Counted from the stretch's first letter, positions 10,455 to 50,694 are shown. The stretch: DNA of 64,000 nucleotides from an uncultured Pseudobdellovibrionaceae bacterium (GCA_964492125.1 CAZBJE010000009.1:2202-66201), one strand, 5' to 3'. Program-made: numbers and translations. Notes: a model not told the origin generated them from the letters alone.

Positions 10455-10490
10455 CTTATCGGCGTAAAACGCGCTTTAATTGACGGCCAA

Positions 10491-13237: not shown

Positions 13238-13240
13238 GGT

Positions 13241-13280
13241 GACCCCTTCAATTCAGACACAATCTGAATCATACGGGGTC
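13241..13280 (-). promoter_or_regulatory. nested palindrome / leader hairpin directly upstream of the TonB-dependent receptor start codon
   Basis: The outer arms GACCCC (13241-13246) and GGGGTC (13275-13280) enclose ATTCAGA-cacaa-TCTGAAT (13251-13269). On the mRNA the 3' arm contains the GGGG of the only SD-like sequence (GAAGGGGTCACCATG). Confidence 0.45.
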
Positions 13281-13313
13281 TGAAAGTCAAGCGAACGACG
13301 CGGCGCGCTAGAT

Positions 13314-13328
13314 TGGCACCGGATTTGC
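13314..13328 (+). promoter_or_regulatory. sigma54 (RpoN) -24/-12 promoter candidate
   Basis: TGGCAC-cggat-TTGCt is a perfect match to the TGGCAC-N5-TTGC core. It lies 41 nt upstream of ATG 13369 in a divergent intergenic region. Confidence 0.5.
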
Positions 13329-13368: not shown

Positions 13369-14796
13369 ATGCGTTTCCGTCTCGCGTCTCTCTTCAGTTT
13401 TCTGCTTTTGGTCGGCGCCCTACCCGCGTTTGCCATAGACGCCCCCGCTTTCTCCCACCCGGATGTCTCGATTTACCAGGCCCATGGTGGAAACTTCCAA
13501 GCAAACAGCCGGAGCGATTCTTCCGGCAATTTCTTTCTGTATTACGAACCGGTGGAAATCGTGCAGCAGGTAATCGAAGAAGTCCTGACCCGAACGTCGT
13601 GGGAAGCTCGCATCGCGTGGACCCAGAAACGCGCGTTAGGCGCCGACGGTTTTGAAGCCTTATCTCCCGCTGCAAAACTAAATTACCTCCAGCTTTTGGA
13701 GGTGCACCGTTTCCCCCTCCTCGCTTGGGATGGCGCGCGGAGTTTGATTTTGCAACGCAAACGCGGAGCGCCGGAATGGCTGGACGAACACCCCCGCATG
13801 GCCCACGCGCCAGGCGCAGGGATCGACGCCACGCTGTCTTATGAGTTCCCAGAAGTGGCGGTACGCCTGCCCGCGAAGTCCGTGCGCGCGGCGTTAACTC
13901 GCGCCGAGGAAGTGATTCGCCACACCGGGCTGTCCGATACCCTATTCAGCGTGGTGTTCGATATCGATGCCGTCCGGCTCGAGTCTCAGGGCACGGCTTT
14001 GTTTTCTTATCTCCAAGAAGTGAACGACGAGCTTTTTTTGGAAGCAGCCATGCGAAGCGTGGAGAATATTGTGAACCCCGAAATTCGCCCGTGGGAAGCG
14101 GGCCACAAGGTGCGGGCTGAAGGTATTATCGCGGAGCGCTTAGCGACTCCCTATGAACACGATTTAAACGATAAATACGATCCCAGCGGCACCTACCTCG
14201 GCTTGAAATTTCTCGGCATGCACGAGGGCAAGATGCGGCTGTCGTTTGAACTGCGGGGTGTAGAGGTGGATTTAGGAGTGGATGAATTTGCGTCGAGCTA
14301 CACCACCCGCGCGAAAATGAATGATGCGCGCCGCTACTTAGATGGGGTGCATAGTTTTGCAGTCTCACTGGTGGAAGGCGTCGCCGAGGACCACCATGTT
14401 TCCAGCCGTTACCTGGATCCAACCCACGCCAAAACGCTGTTAGAAAAACACGCTCGGCTGCGCAAATTCCGATCTATCCCAAGATTAGAGACGTTCGCGC
14501 GAGTCGTGCTCGACCAAGAAAACCCCGAAGGCATCCTCTTTCCCTTCTCTCGCCCCCAAGAAACAGATAACCGTGCAGTGGACGAATACGTGACGCGACT
14601 TGTGGAATTGGTAGTGCAGACCGAAGACGCCGTCGACGACGCCGACTTACGCCGACAATTACGAGAGGATTTTTGGGAGAACTACGAAAATTTCGCCCAG
14701 GGGGAACTCATGCGCACGCGTGTGCACTCGCTTCAGTGGATGAAGGCCGCGCTCGGCCCTTCTTGTGGGTTGGAGCGGTTGGCGGTGGGGTACTAG
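13369..14796 (+). CDS. secreted hypothetical protein
   Basis: ATG at 13369 has a GGAG 6 nt upstream. Signal peptide MRFRLASLFSFLLLVGALPAFA. I recognise no domain. Its stop overlaps the stop of the convergent giant gene (CTAG). Confidence 0.6.
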   Translation: MRFRLASLFSFLLLVGALPAFAIDAPAFSHPDVSIYQAHGGNFQANSRSDSSGNFFLYYEPVEIVQQVIEEVLTRTSWEARIAWTQKRALGADGFEALSPAAKLNYLQLLEVHRFPLLAWDGARSLILQRKRGAPEWLDEHPRMAHAPGAGIDATLSYEFPEVAVRLPAKSVRAALTRAEEVIRHTGLSDTLFSVVFDIDAVRLESQGTALFSYLQEVNDELFLEAAMRSVENIVNPEIRPWEAGHKVRAEGIIAERLATPYEHDLNDKYDPSGTYLGLKFLGMHEGKMRLSFELRGVEVDLGVDEFASSYTTRAKMNDARRYLDGVHSFAVSLVEGVAEDHHVSSRYLDPTHAKTLLEKHARLRKFRSIPRLETFARVVLDQENPEGILFPFSRPQETDNRAVDEYVTRLVELVVQTEDAVDDADLRRQLREDFWENYENFAQGELMRTRVHSLQWMKAALGPSCGLERLAVGY

Positions 14797-17700
14797 TATC
14801 GGGTTCGGTTGCGCATTTCGCGGGCGAGAAGCCCCAACGAATAAGCCGGGCTTAAACCGCCAGTTTCGTTAGCAACTCGGTTGGCGACGTACGTTTTGAA
14901 GGCTTCTGGCGCCAAGCCGTAGTCCGTCGCTACGCTTTCCACAACACGGGCAATTTCGTCGTTTTTGAAATTCCGGGTTCCTGGATTGACCACGTCAACC
15001 GCCGCTACTTGGCGATGGAAATTTTCCAATGCGCCGTATTCGGTTTTGGCCCTAGTCAGAGCTTCCGCGCGCGCCGTTCCAGCGAGAACATCCGCCGTGA
15101 GTTTTTCCCGTACAATGTAATCCAAAAATGGATCGACCTCGCCCAACCGCCGTTCCAATTCAGGGGTTTTGGCCAAGGCCGCCTTGAAAAAGCCTTTGAT
15201 CTTGTCTTCCGGTACGCCTTTTTGCACTAGCTTGGTGGTGAAAATGGCCATGAAAGCTTCAGAAGAATTGGCGTGATTGAAATCCCCCAAGTTGGCTTCC
15301 TTGGCAATGAGGTCGCGCACCGTAGTCTTTACTTTATTTCCTTTTTTATCCACCGTGTCGATCAAGACGTAGTCCAACAACGGGGCCTGGATATTGACCT
15401 CGCCCGCTCGGCTGCGAGAAATTACTTCGTCTGCGATAAGTTTAGGTAGCGCATCGATAACGGCATTTTTTGGATTGGAAGACTTCTGGCTCATGTACGC
15501 GCCTTCCCCAATGCTAGCGAGAGCGGCGTAGAACGGATCTTTGATTTGAGTTCCGTTAGCAGTCGTATAAAACCCTTTGCGGTAGGTTTCCACTACCCCC
15601 TGGAGACCGTCTTGACTATGGTTGACCATGGATTTGACGAGGTAAATCGCGGCCGGCGAGACATTTGGGTTATTTTTCAGCATTCGCAGCGCCAACAAAT
15701 CATCGAACGGTGCCATGCCAGTGACGCTATCGACTCCGGAATCGCTGAGGTTTCGTAAGAAAGTTTGCAATTGAAAATTGTTTGCGAAATTTTCACCAAA
15801 CGACTTCTTATCGTCGTTAAACCCATGCTTTTTTACCATCGCAGTGGTGAACATACCCCCGACCATTTCAAAACTGTTGATGGCGGGCGCCAGCTTTAGT
15901 TTCGGCGCGGCTTTAGTGAGCAAATTGGAGAGAGGCTTGAGCACGGCGCCTTTGAAGAACATTCCCGCACCCGGCGCCAAAGCCATGGCCATCCCAGAGC
16001 TCTTGGCGTTTTCATAGATATCGGTAAAGCCACCAACCGTGTACTTCGCAATCGGCATGCCGCGAGCGACGTCGACACTATCGGGCACGCCGTTATTGTC
16101 AGTGTCGATTTCATGGCGAACACTTTCGGGAAACTCATACCACCGACCCGCGGTCATCGCTTCTTGCCAATCCGGAACGCCGTTGCGATCTTCATCGATG
16201 GCATTAGCCCTGCCCGTAGCCCGCGCTAGTCGGTAGGTGCCCATACCCGCATTCAACGGCATGGACCAAAACGAACTGGTGGCCCCCATTTTAGCCATTT
16301 TGTAGGAGCTCTGGGCGAAGTCGACGCCTTTTTTGATCCACCATACTTTGCCGGCTTGTAGACTCGCGGCGGCCAACCTGCCGTACGTATCATAGCGGTT
16401 GAGAAGTTTGAGAAGCTTGCGGTACTTCATTAATTTAGCGGCGCCCTTTAGTGCGACGATCCCCACCCCGGCCGGCCCGGCTACAATCACGATCGCCGCG
16501 GTGGCGGCCAGCTCTAGTACCGTCGACAGAATTTCGTCACTCACTATGCCGTACGTTTTGAGAATGCCTTCTAGCATATCCCGATGCTGGGTAATCATTG
16601 CTCCGTACTTGAGCGCTAGGTCTTTCCTAGCTTGGTCGGCAGCCACTTCATGGCCATCGTACTTGATTTTTGCGCTACCCAGCTCGCTGAGCTGGGTCAT
16701 GGTGGAAGCGACGTCGTTGAACATTTCGCCGATCGCGTGATCGTTGCCCGTATCACCCCGAACTGCTGCGCGCTTGGTCATCTCCCAAGCACCGCCAGAT
16801 TTTTCAATGGCTAGAGGCAAGTCACCATTGTTTGAAAGCAGGCGGCGAGCCCGATCCGCTTTGCCTTCTATCTCCGGACGTAGAGCAGCGTAGTCCTTGA
16901 AAACGTAGTGGGTCGTCTTTTCGTGCCCATTGAGATCCGTGGGCTGATTTTGGTAGCCCGAGCCCTCTCGTCGGGTAACGAGCGTGTTGGGCCCCAGCGC
17001 CGCGGTGTCGCGCTGGTAGCTAGTTTCTATGAACGCATTGTGTACTTTCTGGTGAAGTTCGTCCTCACCCATCGACCCGGCTTGGGCATTTGGGTTAAGG
17101 GCGTGAGTCTGCGCGGAAATCAGGCCGTAGTAGTCATTGAGCATTCCCATGAACTGCGAGCGTGTGAATTTTTGACCCGGCTTAAGTTTTTCATCGTCGG
17201 ATACTTTATGAAGTTGGGCAGCATCCCACTTCCAGAGATCTCCAACTGATTCGCCTGTCGGAGTCATTCCAATTTCCTTGAGGTCCGATTCGATCTTTTT
17301 CTTTTTCTGCGCGATATCGACCGATTCGCCAGCCGCTTGGGCAACCAGCTGCATGAAGGCACTCCAAGCCTTTTCCTTTGTCATCTTATGAGCCGCCGTG
17401 CCGGAACTCATCCTAAAGACCCAGTCTTGGGCCATTTTCAGGCCACCTACACGCCGCAACCACGCCTCGCGCTCTTTCGGCGATTGCTTCATTCTAGCGA
17501 AATCCATTTTTTCTGGATGTGCATTCGGGTTGCTTACCAACCCGTCGGCAATCGAACGGCCCCACTGCAAATCACGGCGCAAAGTGAATTGATGATAAAG
17601 CGCTCCGTTCGCCTCGGCTTCCGTCTTTGGTTGCTTGTCCTCGGGACAGTTTTTCCCAATACCGCCCTGGAGCGTCGCAACCAACTGATCAGCTTTCAGG

Positions 17701-20700
17701 CCGGGTTCCGAACTACGGGCCAAGAGCATCAGGTCTTTTCGGAACAGTTCCAGTTCATGGGCGTTTTCCGTAGCCTGCAAAGACGCATGCTCTTGGAGAG
17801 TGTGATCGGCATTGAAAAGTAAATCCTTCGAACCTTGCGGCCCGTGCTTGGCATAGAGTTCCTTCAAATATTCCAGCTCGGGGGGAGAAAGCGGGCAAGT
17901 CTCCTGCGCTTGGCATTGTTTCAAGACCGCATCAAGCTGTTCTTGCAAGGGCTGCTGCGATTTGCCGTACTGGGTGATCTTCAGAATCTCGTTCCAAAGC
18001 TCTTGAGTCGCAGCATCATCCTTTTTGGGGTCATTCCCATCCACTAAGAAGCCCCGCACGGCATACTGTGCGACCGCGGCATTCAACTTAGCCGAAAACT
18101 CTGGATCATTCTGCGACATGTCCAGCAGGCGCCGAACGCGCGTTTCCATTGGAATGGGATCCTGGTCACCCGGCGCACGCGCCGGAAAGGAGCGCATATG
18201 AGCGAGAGCCAATAGGCCCCAAGCATCTTGCTGGGGAGAGTTTGCGGTTTTGCGTTCTTTAGAACTCGCTGCGGCGATGGCGTCTTCGACTTCTTTCAAT
18301 TTCTTTTCTTGTTCCGCGGAAAACTTTTTGTCTTCCGGCTGCCAGTAAAAACCGGAGCTTTTCGTCAGTTCGGCAATCCGCGCATCCAAAGCTCGGACAT
18401 CATTCAGCAGCTTGTTGTAGGCAGCCGGTACACGCGCGTTCCGACCTTGCGGTAGGCTCGGCCTCATATCTCTCATCTTTTCCCGGATCGCAGAGGCTTC
18501 TGATTTTTTTGCAACCAATTCCCGGAACTCTTTTTCTGGAAGTTTGGGGTAAGCCTCGCGTCGTTGCTTAGCTAAGGTCTCTTGCAGCTTCCGCTGGGAT
18601 TTCAAAAACTCTTTGTTTTGGGCATCTATTCGCACGCGCACGGCCGCGTCGGAAAGTGTCTCCGATAGCAAATCCCGGTGTTGCGACTGCCAGCGCGAGA
18701 GGGCCCGGCGTCGCAGAGCCTCCGCCCCCGTCATCCCATCGTCATATTCCATAAAGGAGGGATCCCGAATCAGCTCTTCCACCGAACGTTGACCACATTC
18801 TGCCACGGCACGAATCCGTTTGCGTTCCGCCAGCTGTTCTTTCAACCCGGCCAAATGTTCCGCACGTGCAGTCGGATCAGGGAGAAAGGGTTTGAGCAGC
18901 TCATCCGCTTTCTCAGTGTGGCCCGCTTCAAGATGGGCCATCAACGCCCGGGAATAAAGCATTCCGGCAATGCACTCCGCGACGTCCGGAGTACCCTCGC
19001 ACTGAGGAAAAGCACCCACCATACCCGGAAGCATCGAAGCCGTGCTCGGACTCATTTCACCATTCGCCAGGATTTCTCGAACGGCATCGCCGGCAAGCGT
19101 ATTCTGTTGGGCCGTTCCGTCGGTGAGCAGGTGATGCATACGCGGCGACACCGTGCGCAAGGCTTCCGCCAAATGGGCTTCGGGGTGTTCCGTAGGTACC
19201 GTCGCCAATAGCTCTGAGTAACGTTTGGGACTCAGATTGGCTTGTAGCTGGCGGAGCATTGAGGGGCCTAAATCGGGCGATTGCCCAAGATAAGTAAGCA
19301 AAGCGGATTCGGCGCCAATCGGTAAACCTAGTTCTGGATCGTGAGAAGCTTTTGCCTCTTTTAACGCTTCGAGCAGTTTCTGCCCTACTTCGCCCGCCTC
19401 CCCGGCCAATGTCTTCTGCTGCGCCAGGGTCGCGGCTTGGAGTGCGACGTTGGCGGAGTTCAGCGTGGGAGTCAGGGCCGCGGCGTCTGGAACATCGCCG
19501 TAAAGGGTTTTCGAATCGTGTCCCCGCGCCCGCATTACGAGCGAAACTAAAGCGAGCGCATCACGCTCCGCCGGTCCCAAGTTTTTTTCCTCCAGCAAAG
19601 CTTTCTCGGCAGCTTCGGCAACCAAGTCACGCTGGAGGCCACTTAGATTTTTGGAACCAATCGAAATTCCCTCGGGCAAAACAAGCGCCGAATGAGCAAG
19701 TGCACCTTGCAAAAGATTGCGCAGCGGCTCATCTGAATCGCCCTGGTTTAGCCGAGAAATCAACGCCATAGTCTGCACTAATGAATCTTTTCCCGCCGGG
19801 TCGAAGGCTATCTTAGCCAATTCATCGAATGGAATGAAATTGGCGTGAAATCCATCCTTATTGAGCCGCGCCTGCCCTTCCTTATCATCTTTGGCGGTGT
19901 GTTCGAGCAAACTGGCGAGCAACTCGAGACTTAACAGGTTGAGGTTTTTTTGGAGGCCTATTCGATCTTGCGCACTCAAACCCAATCCACGTGTTTGCAA
20001 AGCAGCAGCGATGCGCTCGATGAAAGGAGCCGACGGTAGGCGATCTCCGTTTTGTAAAGCCTTGCGTTCGAGCGCAAGTTGGCGAGCATAAAAATGGGGA
20101 GTAGATGCGCCGAAGTCCGACCATATTTCATTTCGGAACTGACTCTGGGCGCTATCTAACCGTTTCATTAAGTCAGAAACTTCGGGACGAAACTTCTGCA
20201 GGTCGGTGGCGCGCTGAAAATCGAAGCGCTCATCACCCAGCATTTGATGCAGGCGGTCGCCCAGCTGCAGGTCACCTTCGTTCAAGCCAGCGGTATGATC
20301 CGCCGTCAGCGGGTGAGAAAGCGCAGCGCGCAACTCACCCGTTCCCAAATAGGCATTCTTATTCGCAGCCGTGATCACCGCGGCTTTTTCCGGCGGCATG
20401 ATCCCCAAAAGTAAGTCGCTGTCGTGGGGCGCGGCATAGTCCATGGCTGCCAGCTGACTAGTGAGAAAACTGCGCAGTCTTTCCGCAGCAATTCCTTTCC
20501 ACGGCTCCCCGGGGCGAGCGAAAACTCCGCGGTCTTCTAAGCGAGATAAAACTTGTTGGTAGTAGGGGCGTAGCGCAGGGTCGGCGCGGTCCTGATGAGT
20601 AGAAAACTGTCCCTTCTCGGAATGGGGGGCCACGATTTCGGCCAAACGCGCTCGAGCGGCGCTCAGTTTTTCCTTGGGCAAAAGATCGCTTTGGAGCAAG

Positions 20701-21683: not shown

Positions 21684-21802
21684 GGCCCCTCCCCTGTGCG
21701 TATCGGTATTCTAAAGTGCAAGATAAAGACCTGAATGTGGGTGTATACAATTATGAAATCATTGATGAATACGCGGTGACGGACTACGGCAATGTAGAGG
21801 AT
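21684..21802 (-). promoter_or_regulatory. conserved 119-nt leader/promoter region of giant gene A
   Basis: About 88% identical to 28890-29008. Contains an AT-rich core with the TGTATACA palindrome (21742-21749) and the SD GGGGAGGGG. Confidence 0.5.
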
Positions 21803-21822
21803 TTAGGCAGTGTTCAGGGCGA
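21803..21822 (-). pseudogene. 20-nt relic of the 3' end (stop plus last codons) of the lipoprotein gene 29009-30154
   Basis: ttaggcagtgttcagggcga versus ttagtcagtattcagggcga at 29009-29028 (18/20). The relic would encode ..ALNTA*, against the real ..ALNTD*. Confidence 0.8.
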
Positions 21823-21824
21823 AC

Positions 21825-24800
21825 CTAATACCGGGTTCGATTGCGCATTTCGCGGGCTAGTAATCCCAATGAATAGGTGGGGTTAAGGCCATTGGGCTCG
21901 TTGGCAACTCGGTTGGCGACGTAGGTCTTAAACGCTCCTGGCGCCAACCCATAATCCGTCGCTACTTTTTCCACCACACGGGCGATTTCCTCGTTCTTGA
22001 AATTACGCGTACCGGGTGTCACCACATCCACCGCCGATACTTGGCGATGGAAATTCTCTAACGCACCATAATCGGTCATTGCGCGCGTCAGTGCTTCAGC
22101 GCGCGCGGTTCCGGCGAGCACATCGGCCGTGAGTTTTTCTCGCACAATGTAGCTTAAGAATGGCTCAACCTCGCCTAAGTGCCGCTCCAATACGGGAGTC
22201 TTGGCTAGCGCCGCTTTGAAAAAACCTTTGATTTCTTTTTCCGGCACCCCTTTTTGTACTAGCTTTGTGCTGAAGATAGCCATAAACGCTTCAGCAGAAT
22301 TGGCGTGATTGAAATCACCCAAATTGGCATCCTTCGCAATAAGGTCGCGCACCGTCTGCTTTACTGCATTTCCCTTCTTATCCACCGTATCGATCAAGAC
22401 GTAATCCAACAAAGGCGCCTGAATATTCACCTCGCCCGCTCGGCTGCGAGAGATTACTTGGTCCGCAATTATTTTTGGTAGCGCATCGATGACGGTGTTT
22501 TTTGGATTTGAAGCTTTTTGACTGAGGTACGCACCTTCCATCATGCTAGCGAGGGCGGCCCAAAAGGGCCCTTTGACCTGAGTTTTGTTGGCGGTGGTAT
22601 AAAATCCGTTGCGGTACTCTTCCACTATACCTTGCAATCCGTCTTGACCATGGTTTACCAGAGATTTGATGAGATAGAGCCCGGCCGGCGAGATATTTGG
22701 GTTCTTGTTTAACTTGTATGTCGCCCATAAATCATCGATCGGAGCCATGCCCGTGCCGCTATCGATTGCAGAATCGATGAAGTTCCGACCGAAGGTCTGC
22801 CATTGAGAATTGTTTGCGAAATTTTCGCCGAATGACTTCGTGCCGTCGTTTAACCCGTGCTTATTCGCCATCGCGATGGTGAACATGCCTCCAGCCATTT
22901 CAAAACTATTGAAGAACGGAGCACTCTTTAACTTCGGCGCTGCTTTGGCGAGAGCCCAGTTGATGGGTTTGATCGTAGCCCATTTGAAAAGTTTTCCGGC
23001 GCCGGGAGCTAGCGTCATTGTGAGCGCATTACTCTTGGCGCTTTCATAAATATCGGTAAAACCGCCGACCGTGTATTTCGCGGGCGGCATGCCGCGCAAC
23101 ACGTCGACGCTATCGGGCACTCCGTTGTTGTCGATATCGATACCAGCCCGGACGTCTTCGGGAAACTCGTACCATTGACCCGCGGCCATCTTTTCTTGCC
23201 AATCAGGAACGCCGTTGTGGTCTTTATCGATTTTATTGGCCAGGCCAGTAGCTTGTGCCAATCGAATCGCCCCAAACAAGCTATTCGCAGGCAGAGCCCA
23301 AAGCGAACCGGCGGCACCCGTCTTGGCCATTTTGTAAGAACTTTGGGCCAGGTCGACGCCTTGTTTAAGCCACCAAACTTTACCGGCTTGCAGGCTCCCT
23401 GAGGCCAACCTTCCATATGTGCCATAGCGGTTAAGAAGCTTGATAAGTTTACGGTACTTCATCAATTTAGCGGCGCCCTTGAGAAAGGCGATTCCCACCC
23501 CAGCCGGCCCGAAGACCATAAAGATCGCACCGCCGGCAGCGAGCTCCACCAAAAGCGGCAAAATTTCGTCGCTCAATGTACCGTATGTCTTAAGAATGCC
23601 TTCCAGCATTTCTCGGTTCTGGCTAAGCATCGCTGCGTACTTGAGCGCTAGGTCTTTTCTAGCTTGGTCGGCAGGAACTTCATGTCCATCGTAGGTGATT
23701 TTTGCGCTACCCAATTCACTGAGCTGAGTCATGGTGGAGGCGTACTCATTAAACATTTCGCCGATTGCATGATCATTGGCGGTGTCCAACGGTACTTCTC
23801 TAGCTCCGTGCTCGTTCCCCGGTTTGGCAATAATGCCTAAAGTAGAAACCAAACCGAGGGGGCCGAGCGGGCCTAGCGGGGACGTGGCCCCAACGTGACG
23901 GGCCATTTCGGCAGAAGTTTTCCCATTGGGACCGATGGGCTGGATGCCTGCACGCTTGGTCATCTCCCAGGCGCCGCCAGATTTTCCAATAGCTAGAAAC
24001 AAGTCCCCGTTGTTGGAAACGGATCGGCGAGCCCTATCTGCCCTGGCTTCTATCTCCGGACGGAGCGCGGTGTAATCCTTGAATTCATAGTGGAGGGCGT
24101 TTTCAAGCCCGCTGAGTTCCTCTGGTTGGTTATGATAGGCAGAGCTATCTCTTTTCCGAACTACCGTACGGGGGCCCAGCGCGGCAGCGTCCCGCTGGTA
24201 GCCTGCTTCCATGAAGGCATCGTGCACTTTTCGGTGCAATTCGTCCTCGCCCATCGACCCAGCCGGGGCATTAGGGTTAAGGGCGTGCGTCTGCGCGGCT
24301 ACAAGGCCGTAGTATTGATTGAGCCTTCCCATGAACTGGGATCGAGTGAATTTTTGGCCCGGATTGAGTATCTCATCGTCGGAGACTTTATGGAGATTGG
24401 CGGCATCCCACTTCCACAGATCGCCGACCGATTCGCCAGTCGGAGTCATACCGATCTCTTTAAATTCAGCTTCAATCTTTTTCTTCTTCTGTGCAATTTC
24501 CATCGACTCGGCTGCAGCCTGTGCGATTAGCTGCATGAAGGTGCTCCAAGCCCTATCTTCGCTCATCTTGTGAGCCTGAGTTCCAGAGCTCATGCGAAAG
24601 ACCCAGTCTTGCGCCATTTTCAAACCACCCACTCGCTGCAGCCAAGCGTCTCGCTCTTTTGGCGATTGCTTCATTCTGGCGAAATCCATTTTTACTAGGT
24701 GTGCATTTGGGCTGCTTACCAATCCGTCGGCGATGGAACGCCCCCAATGCAAATAGCGGCGCAACATGAGTTGGTGACGGTAAGCGGATTCCAACTCCCC

Positions 24801-27800
24801 GTCTTTTGGCATCAATTCTTCTGGGCAATTCTGGCCAATCGTACCTGGAAGCGTTTCTACGAACATATCTTCTTTGACGACGGGTTCTGAACTACGCGCC
24901 ATCGCCATCAAGTTTCTCCGGAATACTTCAAGTTCATGGGCATTTTCTGCCGCTTGCAGAGCCGAGTGCTCCTCGAGAGTATGATCCGCGTTGAAAAGCA
25001 GATCTTTAGAACCTTGCGGCCCGTGTTTGGCGTAGAGTTCTTTTAGGTATTCCAGCTCAGTGGGAGAGAGTGGACAAGTTTCCTGCACTTGGCATTGCTT
25101 CAAAACCGCATCTAGTTGCTCTTGCAAGGGAAGCTGCGACTTATCGTACTGAGTAATCTTCAAAGTCTCGTCCCAAAGTTCTTTGGTCGCCGCATCATCC
25201 CGCTTAGGATCGCTGCCATCGATGCGTTCTGCTATAAAGCCTAGTTGGGCATACCGTAATACGGTGGAGCCCAACTTAGCCGAAAATTCGGGATCGTTTT
25301 GCGCTATTTGCATGAGGCGTGCAACACGCGTTTCCAGTGGAATAGGATCCTGGTCGGCCGGCGCACGCGCCGGAAAGGAGCGCAAATGGGCAAGTGCCAA
25401 TAGCCCCCAAGCATCTTGCTGGGGAGAGTTTGTGGTTCTGCGTTCTTGAGAACTCGCCGCGGCGATGGCGTCTTCGACTTCTTTCAGTTTCTTTTCTTGT
25501 TCCACCGAAAACTTTTTATCTTCCGCCTGCCAGTAAAAACCGGAGCTTTTCGTCAATTCTGCGATGCGCGTTTCCAATTCTTTTAATTCGCTCACAAGAT
25601 TGGTGTAAGCAGCCGGTAAGCGCGGGCTTCGGCCTTTCGGCAGACTGGGCCTCATGGCCTTCATTTTCTCCTGGATCGCAAAGGCTTCCGATTTTCGTTG
25701 AACCAACTCCCGGAATTCCTTATCGGAAAGTTTGGGGTACGCGTCGCGTCGTTGCTTCAACAATGTACCGTGAAGTCTACGCTGGATTTTCAGAAATTCT
25801 TGATTTTCGGCAGCCAATCGCGCGCGCACGGCAGCGTCCGACATGGTGTCCGAAAGCACACCCCGGTGCTGCGCCTGCCAGCGCGAAAGAGCTCGACGCC
25901 GCATTGCCTCCGCCCCTGTCATCGTATCGCTACGTTCCATGAAAGAAGGATCCCGTATGAGCTCTTCCACCGAACGCCGACTGCATTCCGCGATACTGCG
26001 GATACGTTTGTGAAACCCCATATCCTTTTTCATTGCTGCCAAATGTTCCGCACGCATGGCGGAATCAGGGATCACGAATTTAAGCAGATCGTCCGCCTTC
26101 TCAGCTTGCCCGGCTTCAAGGTGGGCCATGACAGCACGCGAATAAAGGACCCCGTAGACACATTGCGAACTATCCGCAGCCTTCGCACAGATAGAAAACG
26201 CATCCATCCGCTCGGCGTCCACCAAAATGGGAAGCATTCCCGCCGTGCTTGCACTAATTTCGCCGTTCGCCATTATTTCTCGGACCGCATCCCCCTCCAG
26301 CGTATTTCTCTGAGCGATTCCGTCGGTAAGCAAGTGATGCATACGCGGCGATACCGCGCGCAATGCTTCCGCCAAATGGATTTCGGGTTGTTCTGCAGGT
26401 GCTGTCGCCAATAACTCTGCGTAGCGTTTGGGACTCAGATTGGCTTGCAGCTGGCGGAGCACGGAGGGGCCCAGATCCGGAGATTGCCCCAGGTAAGTAA
26501 GTAAGGCGCCTTCGGCGCCTATCGGTAAACCCAGTTCCGGGTCGCGCGAAGCCTTTGCGTCCTTTAGCGCGTCGAGCAGTTTCTGCCCTACTTCGCCCGC
26601 TTCCACCGCCAACGCTTTCTGCTGCGCCAGAGTCGCAGCTTGGAGTGCCACGTTGGCGGAGTTCAGCGAGATGGTGAGGGCCGCAGCGTCTGGAACATCG
26701 CCATAGAGAGTTTTCGAATCGTGGCCCCTCGCCCGCATTACCATTGATACTAGTGCGAGCGCGTCTCGCTCCGCGGGTCCCAAGTTCTTTTCTTCTAGCA
26801 AAACTTTCTCCGCAGCTTCGGCAACTAAGTCACGCTGGCGGCCACTTAGATTCTTGGAACCAATCGAAACTCCCTCCGGCAGAACGAGCGAGGAATGGGC
26901 GAGCACACCTTGCAAAAGCTCACGAAGGGGTTCGTCGGAATCCCCTTGGTTCAAACGCGAAATTAAAGCCATTGTCTGGACGAGTGCGTTTTTGCCGGCT
27001 GGAGCGTAGGCAACTTGGGCTAACTCATCGAAAGAAATGAAGTTGGCATGAAAGCCGTCTTTATTTAGGCGCGCCTGCCCATCCCTATCGTCTTTGGCAG
27101 TGTGTTCCAGCATTTTTGCCAACAGCTCAAGACTTAGGAGATTGAGGTCTTTTTGAAGAGCGATTCGATCCTGTGCATTCAAGCCCAACCCCCGCGACCG
27201 CAAGACTGCTGCGATGCGATCAATGAGTGGAGCCGAAAAGAGGTGTTCTCCATTTTGTAAGGCATTGCGTTCGGACGAAAGTTGCCTGCCATAAAAATGA
27301 GGCGTGGATGCACCATAGTCGGACCAAATTTCATTTCGGAACTGACTCTGAGCACTTTCTAACCGTTTCATCAAGTCAGTTACTTCGGGACGAAATTTCT
27401 GCAGGTCGGTGGCGCGTTGAAACTCGAACCGCTCATCTCCCAGCATCTGGTGCAAGCGATCGCCTAGCTGCAGATCTCCTTCGTTCAATCCCGCGGTATG
27501 ATCCGCCGTAAGCGGGTGAGAAAGTGCCGCGCGCAACTCTCCCCTTCCCAAAAAGGCATTCTTATTCGCCGCCGTTATCAATGCGACCTTCTCTTGTGGC
27601 ATTATCTCCTTCAGCAAGTCGGTATCATGCGGTGCCGCATGGTCCATTGCCGCCAATTGGCTCGTCAAATAGCTGCGCAGTCTTTCTGCGGCAATTGCCT
27701 TCCACGGCTCCCCGAGGCGCGCAAAAACTCCGCGTTCTTCCAGGCGAGACAGAACTTGATGGTAGTACGGGCGTAGCGCAGGATCGGCACGGTCCTCTTG

Positions 27801-28889
27801 TGGGTGATAAAACTGGGCATTGTCAGAATGGTGGGCGGCGATATCAGCCAAACGCGATCGAGCGGCGCTCAGTTTTTCCCTAGGCAAGAGATCGCTTTGG
27901 AACAAGTCATCGCCGCCCTCGGTTAGCGGTGAAAGGCTGTACCCTTTGGTGGATTGGGCGATCTCACCATTGACCAATAGATTTCGGAAGTAGTTTGCGC
28001 GGTCCCATTCCAAAAAGAAATCAGCGGGAGGAGAAGTTCCTACCCTTTCCCCGTAGAGAAAATTCAACATTCTTTTTTCATCGTCGCTGGCCAAGGCGTA
28101 TAAATCGGCCTGAGTGCGTATAGTTTTGCCCTGGAGCTTTTGGTGGAACGCCAAAACCATTTCCTTTAGCAGGGTCGACTCCGCCGCATGAAGCTTTGCG
28201 TTCGAGCACTCTTTGCGTTTGCTGAGGGTGGTAAGGCGACTGACGGAAATTTCATCTGCAACGGCATTGGCAAGGCCCGAGGGCGGAAGTTTCTCCAGTT
28301 CCGCGCTTTGCTCGTGCAGGTACTGGAACATCACATTGAGCCGTGAAGGGGTAGCTTTTACTCCAAACCCCTGGCTTGGTTTCATTCCCATCTCCCAAAA
28401 TTCTTTAAGTGAGTTGGTGAACGGCGTTCCGGGATCGCAGACCAGGCTCATTTCGTAGAGCAGCAGGATATCGGGCATGAAGAGGGAGTAAGACGTTTCC
28501 GTTTTCACTTCGAAGGGATTCACTGCGCCGCTGATTTTTTTGCTATCGAACAAACCAGAGAAGGACGGCCTGGAGGGTTGTGCATCAAAGCGCACTTCAC
28601 CCGCTGGCCCGGGAGATTGAATTCCCGCAGCGGGTCGATCCAGGTTGGGCAAGAAAGGGCGGGACTGGGCGCCCACCGTCGGCAAGTGATTGGGGTCACA
28701 TAGACCTCTTCCGGCCGCGATCACATCTTTCACGCCTTTTTCGCACCAAGGCGAACCTAAGCGGCGACCGAAATCAATTGGAACGATAGTGCGCTTCTCG
28801 GGGGAAGAATGCTTAGCCGCTTCTTGGCCGAACGCGCCAAACGAGAGGAGTGGCAGCAACAAAAGCGTGGAAATTCTTTTCGTAATCAA
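21825..28889 (-). CDS. giant secreted protein, paralog B (2354 aa)
   Basis: Uninterrupted 7.1-kb ORF. TTG start follows the same GGGGAGGGG SD. Signal peptide MITKRISTLLLLPLLSFGAFGQE. Colinear with paralog A apart from a roughly 50-aa insertion. Confidence 0.85.
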   Translation of the reverse strand: MITKRISTLLLLPLLSFGAFGQEAAKHSSPEKRTIVPIDFGRRLGSPWCEKGVKDVIAAGRGLCDPNHLPTVGAQSRPFLPNLDRPAAGIQSPGPAGEVRFDAQPSRPSFSGLFDSKKISGAVNPFEVKTETSYSLFMPDILLLYEMSLVCDPGTPFTNSLKEFWEMGMKPSQGFGVKATPSRLNVMFQYLHEQSAELEKLPPSGLANAVADEISVSRLTTLSKRKECSNAKLHAAESTLLKEMVLAFHQKLQGKTIRTQADLYALASDDEKRMLNFLYGERVGTSPPADFFLEWDRANYFRNLLVNGEIAQSTKGYSLSPLTEGGDDLFQSDLLPREKLSAARSRLADIAAHHSDNAQFYHPQEDRADPALRPYYHQVLSRLEERGVFARLGEPWKAIAAERLRSYLTSQLAAMDHAAPHDTDLLKEIMPQEKVALITAANKNAFLGRGELRAALSHPLTADHTAGLNEGDLQLGDRLHQMLGDERFEFQRATDLQKFRPEVTDLMKRLESAQSQFRNEIWSDYGASTPHFYGRQLSSERNALQNGEHLFSAPLIDRIAAVLRSRGLGLNAQDRIALQKDLNLLSLELLAKMLEHTAKDDRDGQARLNKDGFHANFISFDELAQVAYAPAGKNALVQTMALISRLNQGDSDEPLRELLQGVLAHSSLVLPEGVSIGSKNLSGRQRDLVAEAAEKVLLEEKNLGPAERDALALVSMVMRARGHDSKTLYGDVPDAAALTISLNSANVALQAATLAQQKALAVEAGEVGQKLLDALKDAKASRDPELGLPIGAEGALLTYLGQSPDLGPSVLRQLQANLSPKRYAELLATAPAEQPEIHLAEALRAVSPRMHHLLTDGIAQRNTLEGDAVREIMANGEISASTAGMLPILVDAERMDAFSICAKAADSSQCVYGVLYSRAVMAHLEAGQAEKADDLLKFVIPDSAMRAEHLAAMKKDMGFHKRIRSIAECSRRSVEELIRDPSFMERSDTMTGAEAMRRRALSRWQAQHRGVLSDTMSDAAVRARLAAENQEFLKIQRRLHGTLLKQRRDAYPKLSDKEFRELVQRKSEAFAIQEKMKAMRPSLPKGRSPRLPAAYTNLVSELKELETRIAELTKSSGFYWQAEDKKFSVEQEKKLKEVEDAIAAASSQERRTTNSPQQDAWGLLALAHLRSFPARAPADQDPIPLETRVARLMQIAQNDPEFSAKLGSTVLRYAQLGFIAERIDGSDPKRDDAATKELWDETLKITQYDKSQLPLQEQLDAVLKQCQVQETCPLSPTELEYLKELYAKHGPQGSKDLLFNADHTLEEHSALQAAENAHELEVFRRNLMAMARSSEPVVKEDMFVETLPGTIGQNCPEELMPKDGELESAYRHQLMLRRYLHWGRSIADGLVSSPNAHLVKMDFARMKQSPKERDAWLQRVGGLKMAQDWVFRMSSGTQAHKMSEDRAWSTFMQLIAQAAAESMEIAQKKKKIEAEFKEIGMTPTGESVGDLWKWDAANLHKVSDDEILNPGQKFTRSQFMGRLNQYYGLVAAQTHALNPNAPAGSMGEDELHRKVHDAFMEAGYQRDAAALGPRTVVRKRDSSAYHNQPEELSGLENALHYEFKDYTALRPEIEARADRARRSVSNNGDLFLAIGKSGGAWEMTKRAGIQPIGPNGKTSAEMARHVGATSPLGPLGPLGLVSTLGIIAKPGNEHGAREVPLDTANDHAIGEMFNEYASTMTQLSELGSAKITYDGHEVPADQARKDLALKYAAMLSQNREMLEGILKTYGTLSDEILPLLVELAAGGAIFMVFGPAGVGIAFLKGAAKLMKYRKLIKLLNRYGTYGRLASGSLQAGKVWWLKQGVDLAQSSYKMAKTGAAGSLWALPANSLFGAIRLAQATGLANKIDKDHNGVPDWQEKMAAGQWYEFPEDVRAGIDIDNNGVPDSVDVLRGMPPAKYTVGGFTDIYESAKSNALTMTLAPGAGKLFKWATIKPINWALAKAAPKLKSAPFFNSFEMAGGMFTIAMANKHGLNDGTKSFGENFANNSQWQTFGRNFIDSAIDSGTGMAPIDDLWATYKLNKNPNISPAGLYLIKSLVNHGQDGLQGIVEEYRNGFYTTANKTQVKGPFWAALASMMEGAYLSQKASNPKNTVIDALPKIIADQVISRSRAGEVNIQAPLLDYVLIDTVDKKGNAVKQTVRDLIAKDANLGDFNHANSAEAFMAIFSTKLVQKGVPEKEIKGFFKAALAKTPVLERHLGEVEPFLSYIVREKLTADVLAGTARAEALTRAMTDYGALENFHRQVSAVDVVTPGTRNFKNEEIARVVEKVATDYGLAPGAFKTYVANRVANEPNGLNPTYSLGLLAREMRNRTRY

Positions 28890-29008
28890 GGCCCCTCCCC
28901 TGTGCGTATCGGCATTCTAGGGTGCAAGACAAAGACCTGAATGTGCGTGTATACAAATATGAAATCATTAATGAATACACGGTGACGGGCTACGGCAATG
29001 CAGAGCAA
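28890..29008 (-). promoter_or_regulatory. conserved 119-nt leader/promoter region of giant gene B
   Basis: Same length and layout as 21684-21802, with TGTATACA at 28948-28955. Confidence 0.5.
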
Positions 29009-30154
29009 TTAGTCAGTATTCAGGGCGAGTTCGCGGAGCGCCGCACGGAGAAGCTCCTGGCGCTTGGTGAGGAGGTTGGTAGGCTTGGCAAAGGACGCAT
29101 CTAGACGCATGGCACCAGGCTTATATCGAACAAGATTTTCAGCATCTGTCGAAGCAATAGTCGGAAGCTGGGCTAACGTAACCTCAGTGTCTTTTCTGAG
29201 TGACCGTTGCAATGCGGAAAGTTTTGTTTTTTGCGCTTTCCATTCATTCAAACGGCTCTGAAGAAGCTTTCGGTACGATATGTGAGCAGCGGCGGCCTCG
29301 GAATTAAAGAGGTCCCCTCTCGCGCCTTCCAAATCAACCCAGGAAACACCTCGCCCGAAACCGAGAGAATCTGAAAAAACAGCCCTGGCGGTGAGAAGCA
29401 AACCTCGATCTTCTTGGTCTGGGTCCCGATTATCAGAGCCAAAAACAATGCGAATGGATGAGAATTGCGCGGCCAGTTCACGCGCACTTTGGATTTTTAG
29501 ATCAGATAGCAAGATGACCCAGTCGGGCGACTCCGTTTGTGCTTTCAATTCCTTCTGTATTGCATTGGAGGGAGAATCCAACTTAAAGCCCGCGCCCAAC
29601 TTCTCGCCCTTAGCAAGCGTAGTTACGGACAAGAATAATATTTTCTTCCCATGAATGGAAACCATCTGGGATTTGCGAAATAGCGACTTTACTTCGCCAT
29701 GAGTTAGGTTGGTCGACAAAAAAGGAAACTGCGCCCGCGCGACGAGTTTCCGCATCTCAAGTAGGCCCATCTCCGTATCCGCGGCAGAGACACCCAAAGA
29801 AAAAAGTCCCAACTCATTGAGCGCATCCAGAAGCATTTCCCGCTTAGTCTGGAGATGGCGAGGCCGAAGTTTCGTTCCTGCTCGAGGATAAAAAGTTCGG
29901 CCAGCGCTCAAATGAAAAAGGCCAGCAAGAGATTCACTCATGCCGGCCTTCAAGTTCGCTTCTCTATCAATCCCGCCCAACTGTGATATCGAACAACCGC
30001 AAACTTCCATCTCTAGATGGCGGTTGCCCGCGTAAAGGAAACGAATGGGTTCGACAGATCCGGATGAAGCGGGAATTCGATTGGACGACGAGGCGCACCC
30101 CCCGGCCAACTGCATTACCACGCCGACAGCTAACGCAAAATAAAGGCGCTTCAC
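29009..30154 (-). CDS. lipoprotein with degenerate 5'-nucleotidase/metallophosphatase-like scaffold
   Basis: GTG start overlaps the upstream stop (GTGA). Lipobox MKRLYFALAVGVVMQLAGGC. The block order FLYAGNRH / EVCGC..LGG / SLGVSAAD / FPFLSTNL / ILFLSVTT / WVILLSD...IVFGSDN mirrors the metallophosphatase motifs, but most metal ligands are replaced. Confidence 0.45.
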   Translation of the reverse strand: MKRLYFALAVGVVMQLAGGCASSSNRIPASSGSVEPIRFLYAGNRHLEMEVCGCSISQLGGIDREANLKAGMSESLAGLFHLSAGRTFYPRAGTKLRPRHLQTKREMLLDALNELGLFSLGVSAADTEMGLLEMRKLVARAQFPFLSTNLTHGEVKSLFRKSQMVSIHGKKILFLSVTTLAKGEKLGAGFKLDSPSNAIQKELKAQTESPDWVILLSDLKIQSARELAAQFSSIRIVFGSDNRDPDQEDRGLLLTARAVFSDSLGFGRGVSWVDLEGARGDLFNSEAAAAHISYRKLLQSRLNEWKAQKTKLSALQRSLRKDTEVTLAQLPTIASTDAENLVRYKPGAMRLDASFAKPTNLLTKRQELLRAALRELALNTD

Positions 30155-31221
30155 TTCAATGCGCAAAGCTCTAATTCCTTTGCAACCGCATCAACGTCCG
30201 GGACATGATTGTCGGCTAAGCGCTTTTGCGCCCAGTCTTTCATTGCCTCACGCATCTCGGCGTCGACCTTATTGGGGTCGTAGTCTTTGCCGGCGGTCTT
30301 TGTGTAAACGACCAATCCTCTACCAGCGGCCGCCATGTACTCCATGAAGCCGTGGTACGCGTCAGCGTTGCCCTTCTTCATATCTCTCCACTTACTCATC
30401 ATCGTTCCTAAGGTACCTTTAGCAGCGTGAAACGGAATCGCCCCTAGAAAGAACTGGACTAACATTTCCCGTTCTTCCTTAGATTTCGCATTTTTCAGAA
30501 CTTCAGCAATTTCCTTAAGAGTAGTTGGAAGCGCTTCCGTCGCGCGCACCCCTTTGTCGCCAACGGCATTTCTATAGACGTACTGCACAGCGGTTTCCAT
30601 AGCGTCCCGTTGACTCTTCGTTAATCCGATTCCGTCAAAAACCTTCGACTGGACTTCAATTTGTGAACTTAGTCCTTTTAAACCAGCGGCATTTGTCTTC
30701 AATCCCGCCATTTCCGCGATGAGGTCCATTTTACTCAGCTCTTCAGCGCGAGCCGCGCCCTCTAAACGGCGTTTCTCCTTACTGGCGGCGTCCATATCGG
30801 AGTCCGCAGTGCTGACACGATTTTTCGCGCCGTGAGGCATTAATCCGGGAGCGTGGCTTCCGTCCCCTCCCTCTGTCAGCGCCTTTGCGGCGCCGGAGCC
30901 AATGGGGGTGCGAAGAGCGGGGGCGCCTGCCTTGGGCGCTTGGGCAGCCGGTTGTCCAGGTGCAAAAATTCCAGACGATTTTTCCGCCGCTTGTCCCGGT
31001 ACAGCCCCACTTGCAGCAGCACCGCTTCCCCGAATGAGTTCTTCCTGAGTTTTAATTTGATCAGTCGTCGCCTTTTCGGATTGCGCGCGTTCCACATCCT
31101 GGACCTTGTTCGTGCCGGTGCGCCCAGGATTGACAATCCCACCGAATTTGTCCCGCGCGAAAACATTGGAGCTTCCCAGCACCAAAATAGCCACCGCCGA
31201 TAGGTACGTAATAGCTTTCAC
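30151..31221 (-). CDS. secreted hypothetical protein (Ala/Gly/Pro-rich linker plus helical C-terminal domain)
   Basis: GTG at 31221 lies 6 nt after GGAGGA. Signal peptide MKAITYLSAVAILVLGSSNVFA. It is the first gene of the minus-strand block. Confidence 0.6.
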   Translation of the reverse strand: MKAITYLSAVAILVLGSSNVFARDKFGGIVNPGRTGTNKVQDVERAQSEKATTDQIKTQEELIRGSGAAASGAVPGQAAEKSSGIFAPGQPAAQAPKAGAPALRTPIGSGAAKALTEGGDGSHAPGLMPHGAKNRVSTADSDMDAASKEKRRLEGAARAEELSKMDLIAEMAGLKTNAAGLKGLSSQIEVQSKVFDGIGLTKSQRDAMETAVQYVYRNAVGDKGVRATEALPTTLKEIAEVLKNAKSKEEREMLVQFFLGAIPFHAAKGTLGTMMSKWRDMKKGNADAYHGFMEYMAAAGRGLVVYTKTAGKDYDPNKVDAEMREAMKDWAQKRLADNHVPDVDAVAKELELCALK

Positions 31222-31531
31222 AGGTATCCTCCAGACTGAGTCTAGGTATCGCAAGTTCCAGGCCATGAAAGGCACCTCTGGGCACTCACGTTAAATAATG
31301 AAAACGAAAAACTTTTTCAGCGGAAGAAACGCAAACCCCATGTATTCACTGAGTCTTAATTGTAGAGCGTTTGCGCATTGAAGTAAACTTTGAGTACGCA
31401 CTCTCTGAGTACGGTGCCCCCCGTTTCCGGCGGCACTGCCAGTATGCGTCGCGTTACGGCGCCTGTGTCACACTCGCCCCCCTCCACGCGTCTCTCCCCC
31501 GAACGACATACAACTCTAGGGAGGAACGTAA

Positions 31532-36120: not shown

Positions 36121-36164
36121 CAATCTCTCAATCTTTGCGGCTATTTAGCCGATAAGTAGGGCAG

Positions 36165-36992: not shown

Positions 36993-37034
36993 GATTTGCT
37001 ATGGTGCGTCACGTTTTTTACCATAGAGGTACTC

Positions 37035-49018: not shown

Positions 49019-49205
49019 GCGAACCCCGCAAAGCCGCCATGTGTACCCGAACTCGGCCAAACAGCATACCCAAATCAGAGCTCTCTGCGGACTGCAGTTT
49101 AGTCTTAACATTTAGTTAATTAAAGGAGGCTCCCCCGGTTGTCATTTCCGCTTCTACCGTCCTAACTGAAGCGTAATGGGCAAACTATTTATGGGGGTTA
49201 TCAAG

Positions 49206-49770: not shown

Positions 49771-50694
49771 CTATTCCATCAAAGTGGTCGCGGCGATCGC
49801 GCCGGAACAGGAACGATCCGCTTTCTTCAAAAGGCCAATCAGGCCTTCTTCACTCACCACGGTTCTACCCCCGCTATTTGCACGCCGCCAATCACTGCTC
49901 CTTGGCGCGAGTAAGTAACTCCCGTCGCCTCGCTTCATAAACAGAGTAACGGACCAAAGCTTAGAGCCGTGATCGTAGATCGAGTAGCTCCCAGAATCGG
50001 GAGGGAAATTGCTCGATGGCGGATAAGACCGAAAGTCGGTACCAAAGTGAGGATACGCTAGCTCAAATTTTCGTCCCTGCTCCACGCTAGGGTTACCCAC
50101 TCGCATCCCGTCTTGCGTTCGCCAGGAAGCCACCAAACCTTGGTCTGTGTAGACGTAGAAGTAGGCCTGCCCCTTGTCACTGTAATGACCAGACACGGGG
50201 ATCCGAAGCCCTATGAGGTTCGTTGCGGCGATAGGCTCCAGTTCACCACATTCGACCAACCGCAAATAGAGATCTTCGGATGAAACCGCGTTGCAGGAAG
50301 AACTTCTGCCTTTGCAAACTCTGAAATACCCCTCGCCAAGATTTTGGTACTGGTAAGTTACGCCGTGCTCTTGAAACACACCCGAACCCGGTATTCCGCG
50401 GTCGGAACTGTCCACCCCTTCCCAACTGAGCTGACCGTTCTGCACCAATAAATCCAAGAGCTCCGATTCCAGCAGATTGGATTCAACCGGCACCGCCCTG
50501 CCCTCAAGCTTTTGAGTCGTCGTGAAAACCGTATTGTTAGCCCGCTTGTACTCTACCGACTCCCCGGCACTGTTGGTCAACGTCCCGCTGGATGGAAGGT
50601 AGCTGATTTTCGCCCAACCAAAACGGGGAAAGCACAGCCCTGCGAAAATGCCGCAAGCAACCGCCGCCGACCGAAACCGATACTTTTCTGACAT
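49771..50694 (-). CDS. secreted hypothetical protein with about 4 internal repeats
   Basis: ATG 50694 lies 9 nt after GAGGAG. The recurring pattern SG.....G..Y.Y ... L..LL occurs four times. Confidence 0.5.
   Translation of the reverse strand: MSEKYRFRSAAVACGIFAGLCFPRFGWAKISYLPSSGTLTNSAGESVEYKRANNTVFTTTQKLEGRAVPVESNLLESELLDLLVQNGQLSWEGVDSSDRGIPGSGVFQEHGVTYQYQNLGEGYFRVCKGRSSSCNAVSSEDLYLRLVECGELEPIAATNLIGLRIPVSGHYSDKGQAYFYVYTDQGLVASWRTQDGMRVGNPSVEQGRKFELAYPHFGTDFRSYPPSSNFPPDSGSYSIYDHGSKLWSVTLFMKRGDGSYLLAPRSSDWRRANSGGRTVVSEEGLIGLLKKADRSCSGAIAATTLME

Follow-up and report, generated by a model that had tools for sequence, protein, structure and literature searches.

A conserved three-gene unit built around giant exported proteins without known domains in an uncultured Pseudobdellovibrionaceae bacterium: a candidate inducible envelope scaffold

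An uncultured Pseudobdellovibrionaceae bacterium carries, on a 64,000-nucleotide stretch of DNA (GCA_964492125.1 CAZBJE010000009.1:2202-66201; the whole stretch is called the window here, and positions are counted from its first letter), two tandem genes for paralogous exported giants, A and B (Table 1). The giants have no known domain and their modelled part has no known fold relative. Judged by synteny across related loci, the conserved unit to which they belong is made of three gene families, namely the giant, a lipoprotein with a dead 5'-nucleotidase domain and the small secreted protein p374; the four genes of the window reflect a duplication of the giant. What could such a unit be doing? 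The answer preferred here, put forward tentatively and at somewhat less than even confidence, is that it would build an exported scaffold, produced on induction and stabilised by calcium and disulfides, that lies in the envelope or at the cell surface and is served by two dedicated periplasmic partners. A preliminary description of this DNA had proposed a five-gene secreted module at 14793-31221. The genes are real and form an undescribed exported unit, but the gene count and the module boundaries did not survive, as open reading frame (ORF) calls give four minus-strand genes in that range (p374, lipoprotein, giant A and giant B) and not five.

Are the giant frames genuine genes? The two proteins are 77% identical and, by the Nei-Gojobori method, synonymous divergence (dS) is 0.94, nonsynonymous divergence (dN) 0.125 and dN/dS 0.13, with no 100-codon block above 0.25. 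Purifying selection is clear from this codon comparison and extends over the whole length, as the earlier claim of a selected function would have it; a dN/dS this low at such a dS means that both giants are expressed, selected genes. The compactness of the genome, first offered as the argument for function, is real as well, in that the palindrome CTAG at 14793-14796 forms the overlapping stop codons of giant B and of p479, a convergent orphan gene; this argument can be kept, but it is weaker than dN/dS and synteny. The lack of any annotated relative, and a word-based search which returned the query alone, could suggest decaying or spurious frames without function. With the dN/dS and dS values above, intact full-length homologues of 2,215-2,419 aa in about ten lineages and conserved promoters and partners, this explanation is refuted and keeps practically no probability. 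The dS per 100-codon block ranges from 0.41 to 2.25, and patches of gene conversion after the duplication are possible.

A full HMMER search of 1.84 billion representatives, using the C-terminal 1,180 residues as query, found nine relatives, all with E <1e-39: seven full-length proteins of 2,215-2,417 aa and two fragments. Cluster membership brought in one more relative (P0012, 2,300 aa), and a metagenome scan another (locus L092, 2,419 aa). All are metagenomic and carry no label beyond 'hypothetical protein', so that with nine matches in a collection of this size the family is very rare and known from metagenomes only. A word-indexed protein search with giant A, with the lipoprotein or with a ten-sequence family alignment returned the query alone; its silence does not mean absence, because known relatives sit in that same collection. 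No match came from looking up giant A by exact sequence among contigs, or from scanning genome and viral contigs for patterns of both paralogues. Homology within the family is full-length, at 21-38% identity between about ten lineages, and a single giant is present in every other locus recovered, hence the tandem duplication is specific to the window lineage. No internal repeats were found in the giants. Giant A has a private insert of 54 residues (1648-1701; window 23787-23948, minus strand), missing from giant B and from every relative; it contains the run PLGPLGPLG and a short stretch of hydrophobic residues.

Domain and fold searches leave the giants without a name. Pfam, NCBIfam and PADLOC have no match for either protein, Pfam finds zero families in ten full-length family members, and PDB sequences give no match with a single giant or with the family profile. 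AlphaFold modelling of giant B residues 1372-2296 (925 aa) with an 11-sequence alignment reached a mean predicted local distance difference test (pLDDT) score of 73 and a predicted template modelling (pTM) score of 0.47; with a two-paralogue alignment pLDDT was 33. The model has 67% helix and 6% strand, so the earlier statement that the giants are almost entirely helical stands for the last 925 residues and is not shown for the first ~1370. Foldseek of these C-terminal 925 aa against PDB found no relative (best E 0.023, template modelling (TM) score ≤0.13), and against BFVD it returned only generic long helical phage proteins (TM ≤0.13). RTX, RHS/YD, autotransporter, two-partner secretion (TPS)/haemagglutinin, Ig/cadherin, TcA and large clostridial toxin families gave no domain match to the giants and no structural match to these 925 aa. 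The preliminary reading of the giants as lacking a recognisable toxin, adhesin or secretion signature is thus borne out in all these collections, and the search for a confident match to a described family of any of these kinds found none.

The giants do have conserved features of their own. Each has an N-terminal signal-like peptide, in agreement with the preliminary description, and signal peptides are present in nearly all family members. Eight family-conserved cysteines form four neighbouring pairs (49/64, 151/228, 901/910 and 1266/1272), and both window giants have no cysteine beyond residue 1355. The last ~650 residues are the best-conserved part of the protein and contain, besides polybasic helices and two NG[VI]PD loops, a hydrophobic helical hairpin rich in Gly and Ala. 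The hairpin segment runs helix-Gly-Pro-helix and is followed by a polybasic amphipathic helix; its Kyte-Doolittle peaks are 2.06 and 2.18 in the window giants, and the least confident part of the AlphaFold model (residues 341-406 of the model) covers it. The loops have the consensus NG[VI]PDW for the first and DxDNNG[VI]PD for the second, with N1892, G1893, P1895, D1896 and W1897 conserved across the family in one and D1918, N1922, G1923, P1925 and D1926 in the other. Both DxDxNGVPD loops described earlier are therefore present and family-conserved, with the restriction that only the second (DxDNNGVPD) fits the DxDxDG-type motif, the first being DxDxNG in some members only. Pfam TSP_3 does not match the giants even at E 1, and there are just two loops. 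From their motif, the loops may bind calcium.

Which genes belong with the giant? Contigs were recovered for all full-length relatives (loci are given L numbers). A lipoprotein homologue adjoins the giant in eight other loci, wherever the contig covers the upstream flank, and it is adjacent even in L086 and L090, where it lies on the opposite strand; L095 has too little upstream sequence to judge. In seven relatives (L081, L084, L088, L090, L091, L092 and L094) the giant has a p374 homologue on its upstream side. In L086 the place of p374 is taken by a 465-aa gene, for which profile comparison detected no relation to p374. The module is indeed conserved across genomes with the same partners. 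In the window clade the neighbourhood as a whole is collinear (HtrA, p374, lipoprotein, giant, TonB-dependent receptor, TonB, major facilitator superfamily (MFS) transporter, C-methyltransferase and sugar-nucleotide genes), so adjacency alone proves little there and it is rate that separates the members. Between clade genomes, identity is 84-85% for ABC-F, 71-77% for the C-methyltransferase, 67-72% for the TonB-dependent receptor and 59-67% for HtrA; it is 22-34% for p374, 27-35% for the lipoprotein and 25-35% for the giant. By rate, p374, the lipoprotein and the giant are one fast-evolving set and the receptor is outside it. Of 80 loci reached by way of the ABC-F neighbour, not one contains a member of the three families.

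Could the giant nevertheless assist the adjacent receptor, perhaps by capturing substrate at the cell surface, so that the whole block is one uptake locus? In five lineages the receptor and TonB follow the giant on the same strand after 23-65 nt, and an MFS transporter gene lies further downstream in four loci. This explanation is largely refuted and very improbable, given the receptor's identity of 67-74% between genomes in which the giant is at 25-35%, its own promoter and palindromic operator conserved in five lineages, the lack of a receptor beside the giant in L086, L090, L091, L092 and L095, and the unrelated gene that separates giant and receptor in the window. The receptor and TonB were rejected as unit members on the same grounds of slower divergence and separate control. 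The receptor promoter/operator (CTTGACTTTCAGACCCCGTATGATTCAGATTnnGTCTGAATTGAGGG, window 13238-13295, intergenic, minus strand) contains the palindrome ATTCAGA-N5-TCTGAAT; it is near base-for-base identical in five genomes with about 70% protein identity and resembles that of a repressor-controlled uptake operon. Other genes accompany the unit in part of its range. A gene of ~945 aa with a weak precomputed Omp85 match lies beside it in the three most distant lineages (L086 18659-21526, minus; L090 89-2920, plus; L092 65-2893, plus), the L086 and L090 copies being 43% identical; the 941-aa ORF of the window (36996-39821), considered as its counterpart, is unrelated. An S41 CtpB-like protease is found near the unit in L086, L090 and L095, and HtrA instead in the window clade.

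What does the lipoprotein contribute? Against NF041198 (UshA-like (seleno)protein) it scores 95 bits (E 3.9e-27) and its relatives 130-168 bits (E down to 3e-49), all below the curated cut-off of 275 bits. The lipoprotein family profile matches 5'-nucleotidase N-domains (PDB 2z1a, E 1.5e-11; UshA, 5e-9). Aligned to 2z1a by profile, the lipoprotein keeps the GGxxR segment and the strand order of 5'-nucleotidases but has other residues in place of the DxH, GD and GNH(E) ligands and of the later H and GH. With every metal and catalytic residue replaced, it cannot have the activity of such a phosphoesterase, and the earlier view of it as a degenerate metallophosphatase is upheld. At the position of DxH stands E-x-E-x-C-G-C, invariant in 8/8 family members; the invariant residues are E52, E54, C56, G57, C58, G64, G65, R68 and N71. 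By alignment, the CGC is the cysteine form of the C-x-Sec (cysteine-x-selenocysteine) motif of the UshA-like selenoprotein, a family listed with its CxU motif in PMC2398784 and PMC13188914. A cysteine follows the hydrophobic segment (...L(V/A/T)(G/A/S)C; LAGGC in the window variant) in every member whose sequence includes the N-terminus, and the lipobox was called from this conserved, aligned cysteine. CxC sites are known for thiol-disulfide or metal chemistry, and the analogy suggests such a role for the CGC of the lipoprotein.

The second partner, p374, has a signal peptide, a disordered, low-complexity linker of ~150 aa rich in Ala/Gly/Pro/Lys, and a helical C-terminal domain of ~190 aa. 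In its relatives the protein finishes with a CxC...C tail; the window copy has only the last of these cysteines. The protein carries a short L[ST]xxQ-like stretch and gives a weak match to CpxP (NF007687; E 3.9e-4) that spans 34 residues and scores 20 bits, where the cut-off is 160. A PDB search with the p374 family profile did not recover CpxP, Spy or ZraP, so membership among these chaperones was rejected and the match is a lead only. Profile comparison found no relation between the p374 family and any part of the giant. In the window p374 and the lipoprotein gene are coupled as described earlier, the in-frame GTG 30154 overlapping the upstream TGA as GTGA. GTG 31221 is taken as the start of p374 because a GGAGGA ribosome-binding site precedes it and because the longer version of the ORF would include a conserved promoter box. 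For both genes the start codons first proposed are thus preferred to those of the maximal ORFs.

How might the unit be switched on? The DNA upstream of the giants has a conserved block within otherwise unalignable sequence, with CCGATA placed 26 nt before both giant start codons. The two giant leaders of ~140 nt are 87% identical while synonymous sites differ by 53%, and the leader itself is therefore constrained. The duplicated leader was also considered as an RNA structure, which was rejected as it folds no better than shuffled sequence (z 0.4 and 1.2). A GG-N8-(T/G)TGCA box lies about 46-58 nt before the giant start in 10/10 lineages (its position in L084 assumes an upstream TTG start, which also restores the signal peptide), with the perfect box TGGCACTTCCATTGCA in L092 and L095 and TGGACCCTTGTTTGCA in L090. 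In the window the pattern GG-N8-TTGCA occurs at chance rate (12 per 128 kb), so that its constant position in every lineage is the evidence. The sigma-54 consensus and bound variants of it, including AGGCAT... and CGGCGT..., are documented (PMC3844500). GG and (T)GC ten bases apart, as at -24/-12, are found before the giants, the p374 unit and p479. By these motifs the giants carry the -24/-12 architecture of sigma-54 promoters, and the unit is probably switched on by sigma-54. Near-identical p374 boxes are conserved inside otherwise unalignable upstream DNA of five lineages (TGGCCTGGAACTTGC in the window, L084, L088 and L094; TGGCCCGTGATTTGCT in L092), and the TTTACT...TACAAT of a distal sigma-70-like promoter is also present in L084. 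Further upstream of the giants is a GTCAC...AAT(G/A/T)ATTTCA site, seen in both window copies and in L088, L081, L084, L091 and L094, with a full GTGAC-N7-GTCAC palindrome in L081 and L094; it is a candidate activator site.

The giant block holds a second promoter-like element. CCGATA, a sigma-28-type -10, stands nine bases after TTGCAC in the window clade, L091 and L094 (seven lineages in all) and is missing from the four most distant lineages, where the sigma-54 box is better. In Bdellovibrio bacteriovorus the attack-phase FliA promoter is TTAAG-N16-CCGATA, and it also drives many non-flagellar genes (PMC3627812). Against TTAAG, the giant -35 matches at 2-3/5 positions in the window copies and at 2-4/5 across lineages, L081 having TAAAG-N16-CCGATA. 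The sigma-28-type -10 CCGATAAG is found at 10457-10462 (minus), upstream of the MFS transporter gene, and at 36149-36156 (plus), upstream of a PDZ/CC0125-family lipoprotein gene, and both sites are conserved in place in L084 and L088. This conservation before the two genes makes a sigma-28-type promoter appear to be in use in the clade, where it may serve non-flagellar genes widely. Is there one giant promoter, or are there two that overlap? The sequence is compatible with either. A segment resembling the giant promoter block (CAAAG-TTTGCACGCATATCG-CCGATAT, 33792-33829, minus) lies inside the conserved ABC-F coding region and is probably chance or an internal promoter.

The overlap of sigma-54- and sigma-28-type elements at the giants brings flagella to mind, since flagellar hierarchies use that pair. 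Complex flagellar motors contain the sigma-54-dependent helical PflA/PflB and the lipoprotein FlgP, and a large helical exported protein paired with a lipoprotein would suit a periplasmic scaffold belonging to a motility or surface organelle (motor accessory, sheath or pilus) with the lipoprotein as outer-membrane anchor. Such a role is improbable. No flagellar, pilus or chemotaxis gene is present among the scanned window ORFs or the related loci, CCGATA has the non-flagellar uses noted above in B. bacteriovorus and precedes the MFS transporter and PDZ lipoprotein genes in the window clade, and for parts of a machine an identity of only 25-35% between close genomes would be unusual.

The envelope scaffold preferred here would work as follows. 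An enhancer-binding activator would turn on sigma-54 RNA polymerase at the p374-lipoprotein and giant units, with neighbouring p479 responding to the same switch in the window genome and the sigma-28-type promoter acting as a second input to the giant genes in the window clade. All products would cross the inner membrane via Sec. The lipoprotein would sit on the periplasmic membrane face and, together with p374, serve as a dedicated maturation or anchoring partner, its CGC acting as a thiol-disulfide or metal site. Stapled by disulfides and stabilised by calcium, the giant would then form a scaffold, in the envelope or at the cell surface, attached to a membrane via the hydrophobic hairpin and the basic helices. 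Localisation, calcium binding, disulfides and the interaction of the partners are all predicted here from sequence. Surface exposure is suggested because all three proteins diverge very fast, which may reflect outside pressure at the cell surface. The membrane-inserting, adhesive and scaffolding roles suggested in the preliminary description are candidates only.

Several observations weigh against this scheme. The -24 box of the window clade is AGG, CGG or GGG (AGG in the window) and not TGG, and with this box as promoter CCGATA falls at about +1, so that two promoter readings compete; an activator gene was not found among the scanned ORFs of the window. Fast divergence could instead come from low constraint on a helical scaffold, and no outer-membrane route is encoded nearby in the window clade, which leaves surface exposure unsupported. 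The structural test covers the last 925 residues, the first ~1,370 being assessed by sequence. Finally, the Gly/Ala-rich hydrophobic helices pointed out in the preliminary description are strong in the window giants (2.1-2.2) but weak in three lineages (hydrophobicity ≤1.1), so the membrane anchor may not be family-wide.

Would a secreted effector fit better? Here the hairpin would insert into the membrane of another cell, for example prey, and the two small proteins would help in export or activation. A Gly-Pro hairpin flanked by basic helices that is also the least confident segment of the model fits a conformational switch and has calcium-type loops next to it, divergence is very fast in all three proteins, the promoter may be of attack-phase type, the best genomic neighbours (by ABC-F) are Bdellovibrionota metagenome-assembled genomes, and the ~945-aa weakly Omp85-like gene accompanies the unit in three distant lineages. 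This reading is nonetheless unlikely, at about half the weight of the envelope scaffold. Searches of the giants gave neither a toxin domain nor an enzymatic one, an immunity-like gene is missing, the hairpin is weak in the three lineages mentioned, and in the window clade the surroundings of the unit include no gene for outer-membrane export. Conservation is highest at the C-terminus, whereas polymorphic toxins show the reverse, and the taxonomic support is weak, ABC-F being about 70% identical to Bdellovibrionota and Firmicutes alike. TonB, a TonB-dependent receptor and lipoproteins mark the source as probably Gram-negative.

The envelope scaffold can be worded in a stronger form, as a new inducible envelope system in which a sigma-54-controlled 250-kDa helical giant of new fold would depend on the CxC lipoprotein and p374 for folding or anchoring; in this full form it is doubtful. 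If true, the UshA-like selenoprotein family would for the first time be placed in a functional context, with a redox or metal role towards a giant exported client, and a new class of giant proteins would be added in an uncultured, probably Bdellovibrionota-related clade. Should the clade be predatory, the giants would be candidate cell-surface or attack-phase factors. Whatever the function, 14 kb of strongly selected coding sequence without a recognisable domain or fold is functional dark matter, the UshA-like CxU/CxC family gains a constant genomic partner, and the three-protein unit, its promoters, cysteine pairs, loops and hairpin, with about ten natural variants, make the question testable.

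Table 1. Positions of the genes and predicted elements in the window
Feature	Position	Strand	Description
Giant A	21825-28889	-	2354 aa, 259 kDa; exported (signal-like N-terminus), non-repetitive
Giant B	14793-21683	-	2296 aa, 252 kDa; tandem paralogue of giant A
Lipoprotein gene	29009-30154	-	381 aa from GTG 30154; maximal ORF 29009-30166
p374, small secreted protein	30151-31221	-	356 aa from GTG 31221; maximal ORF 30151-31275
p479, orphan secreted protein	13369-14796	+	475 aa from ATG 13369; convergent with giant B
Giant A promoter block	28907-28937	-	AGGTCTTTGTCTTGCA (GG-N10-GC, sigma-54-type), then CCGATA (sigma-28-type -10)
Giant B promoter block	21701-21731	-	Duplicated copy of the giant A block
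Conserved upstream site of giant A	28960-28986	-	GTCAC...AATGATTTCA; candidate activator or bending site
p374-lipoprotein box	31251-31265	-	TGGCCTGGAACTTGC; sigma-54-type -24/-12
Distal sigma-70-like promoter of p374	31359-31387	-	TTTACT-17-TACAAT; predicted by consensus scan
p479 sigma-54 box	13314-13328	+	Full consensus TGGCACCGGATTTGC(T), also written TGGCACCGGATTTGCT; 41 nt before the start codon
Hydrophobic hairpin segment, giant A	23424-23564	-	Residues 1776-1822; Kyte-Doolittle peaks
Hydrophobic hairpin segment, giant B	16392-16532	-	Kyte-Doolittle peaks
Two NG[VI]PD calcium-type loops, giant A	23112-23228	-	Residues 1888-1926; invariant columns
Two NG[VI]PD calcium-type loops, giant B	16080-16196	-	Invariant columns

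The unrelated gene between giant B and the receptor operon is p479, which occupies this place in the window genome only. It has a signal peptide and no relative in Pfam, NCBIfam, PADLOC, PDB or any related locus. It is possible that p479, which lies outside the range first proposed, is a lineage-specific fifth member of the system, the sole link being its sigma-54-type promoter. Elsewhere in the window, many large ORFs, at 36996-39821 (941 aa), 47555-49111, 49771-50703, 50903-51961, 51958-55488 and 55326-56300, have no Pfam or NCBIfam match, among them an ORF of 1176 aa with a sub-threshold HEAT-repeat match only; the genome is that of a poorly sampled lineage. An extracytoplasmic function (ECF)-type sigma factor of unusual length (302 aa; 56297-57411, minus) lies beside the only tRNA gene of the window, tRNA-Gly(CCC).

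How does the unit compare with known systems? TcA and large clostridial toxins offer an analogy only: they are of similar size (~2,300-2,500 aa), largely helical and with a hydrophobic hairpin in a conserved region, while the giants have no Pfam or NCBIfam match, no Foldseek match in the modelled part and no enzymatic cargo domain. The giants also have Sec signal peptides and conserved cysteine pairs, which these toxins are not known to have. With the FliA regulon of B. bacteriovorus the giants share the exact -10 CCGATA, the window -35 being poor. The likeness of the unit to ZraP and PspA, sigma-54-dependent periplasmic stress proteins, is regulatory only; envelope proteins with TGGCAC-N5-TTGCW promoters are a known class, and zraP, pspA and pspG are listed among sigma-54-bound promoters (PMC3844500). 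The lipoprotein matches the N-terminal domain of the calcineurin-like periplasmic 5'-nucleotidases (UshA, T. thermophilus 2z1a, CD73 and SoxB) and differs from them in having neither the metal and catalytic residues nor the substrate-binding C-terminal domain. Another comparison is with the NF041198 family. The lipoprotein differs in having cysteine and not selenocysteine, in its scores (95-168 bits with its relatives, against 275), in its length (381 aa against a 519-position model, the C-terminal part being missing or replaced) and in its constant pairing with a giant gene, which is not described for that family. The two have in common the lipoprotein signal, the CGC placed exactly at the family's C-x-Sec and the same preceding ExE.

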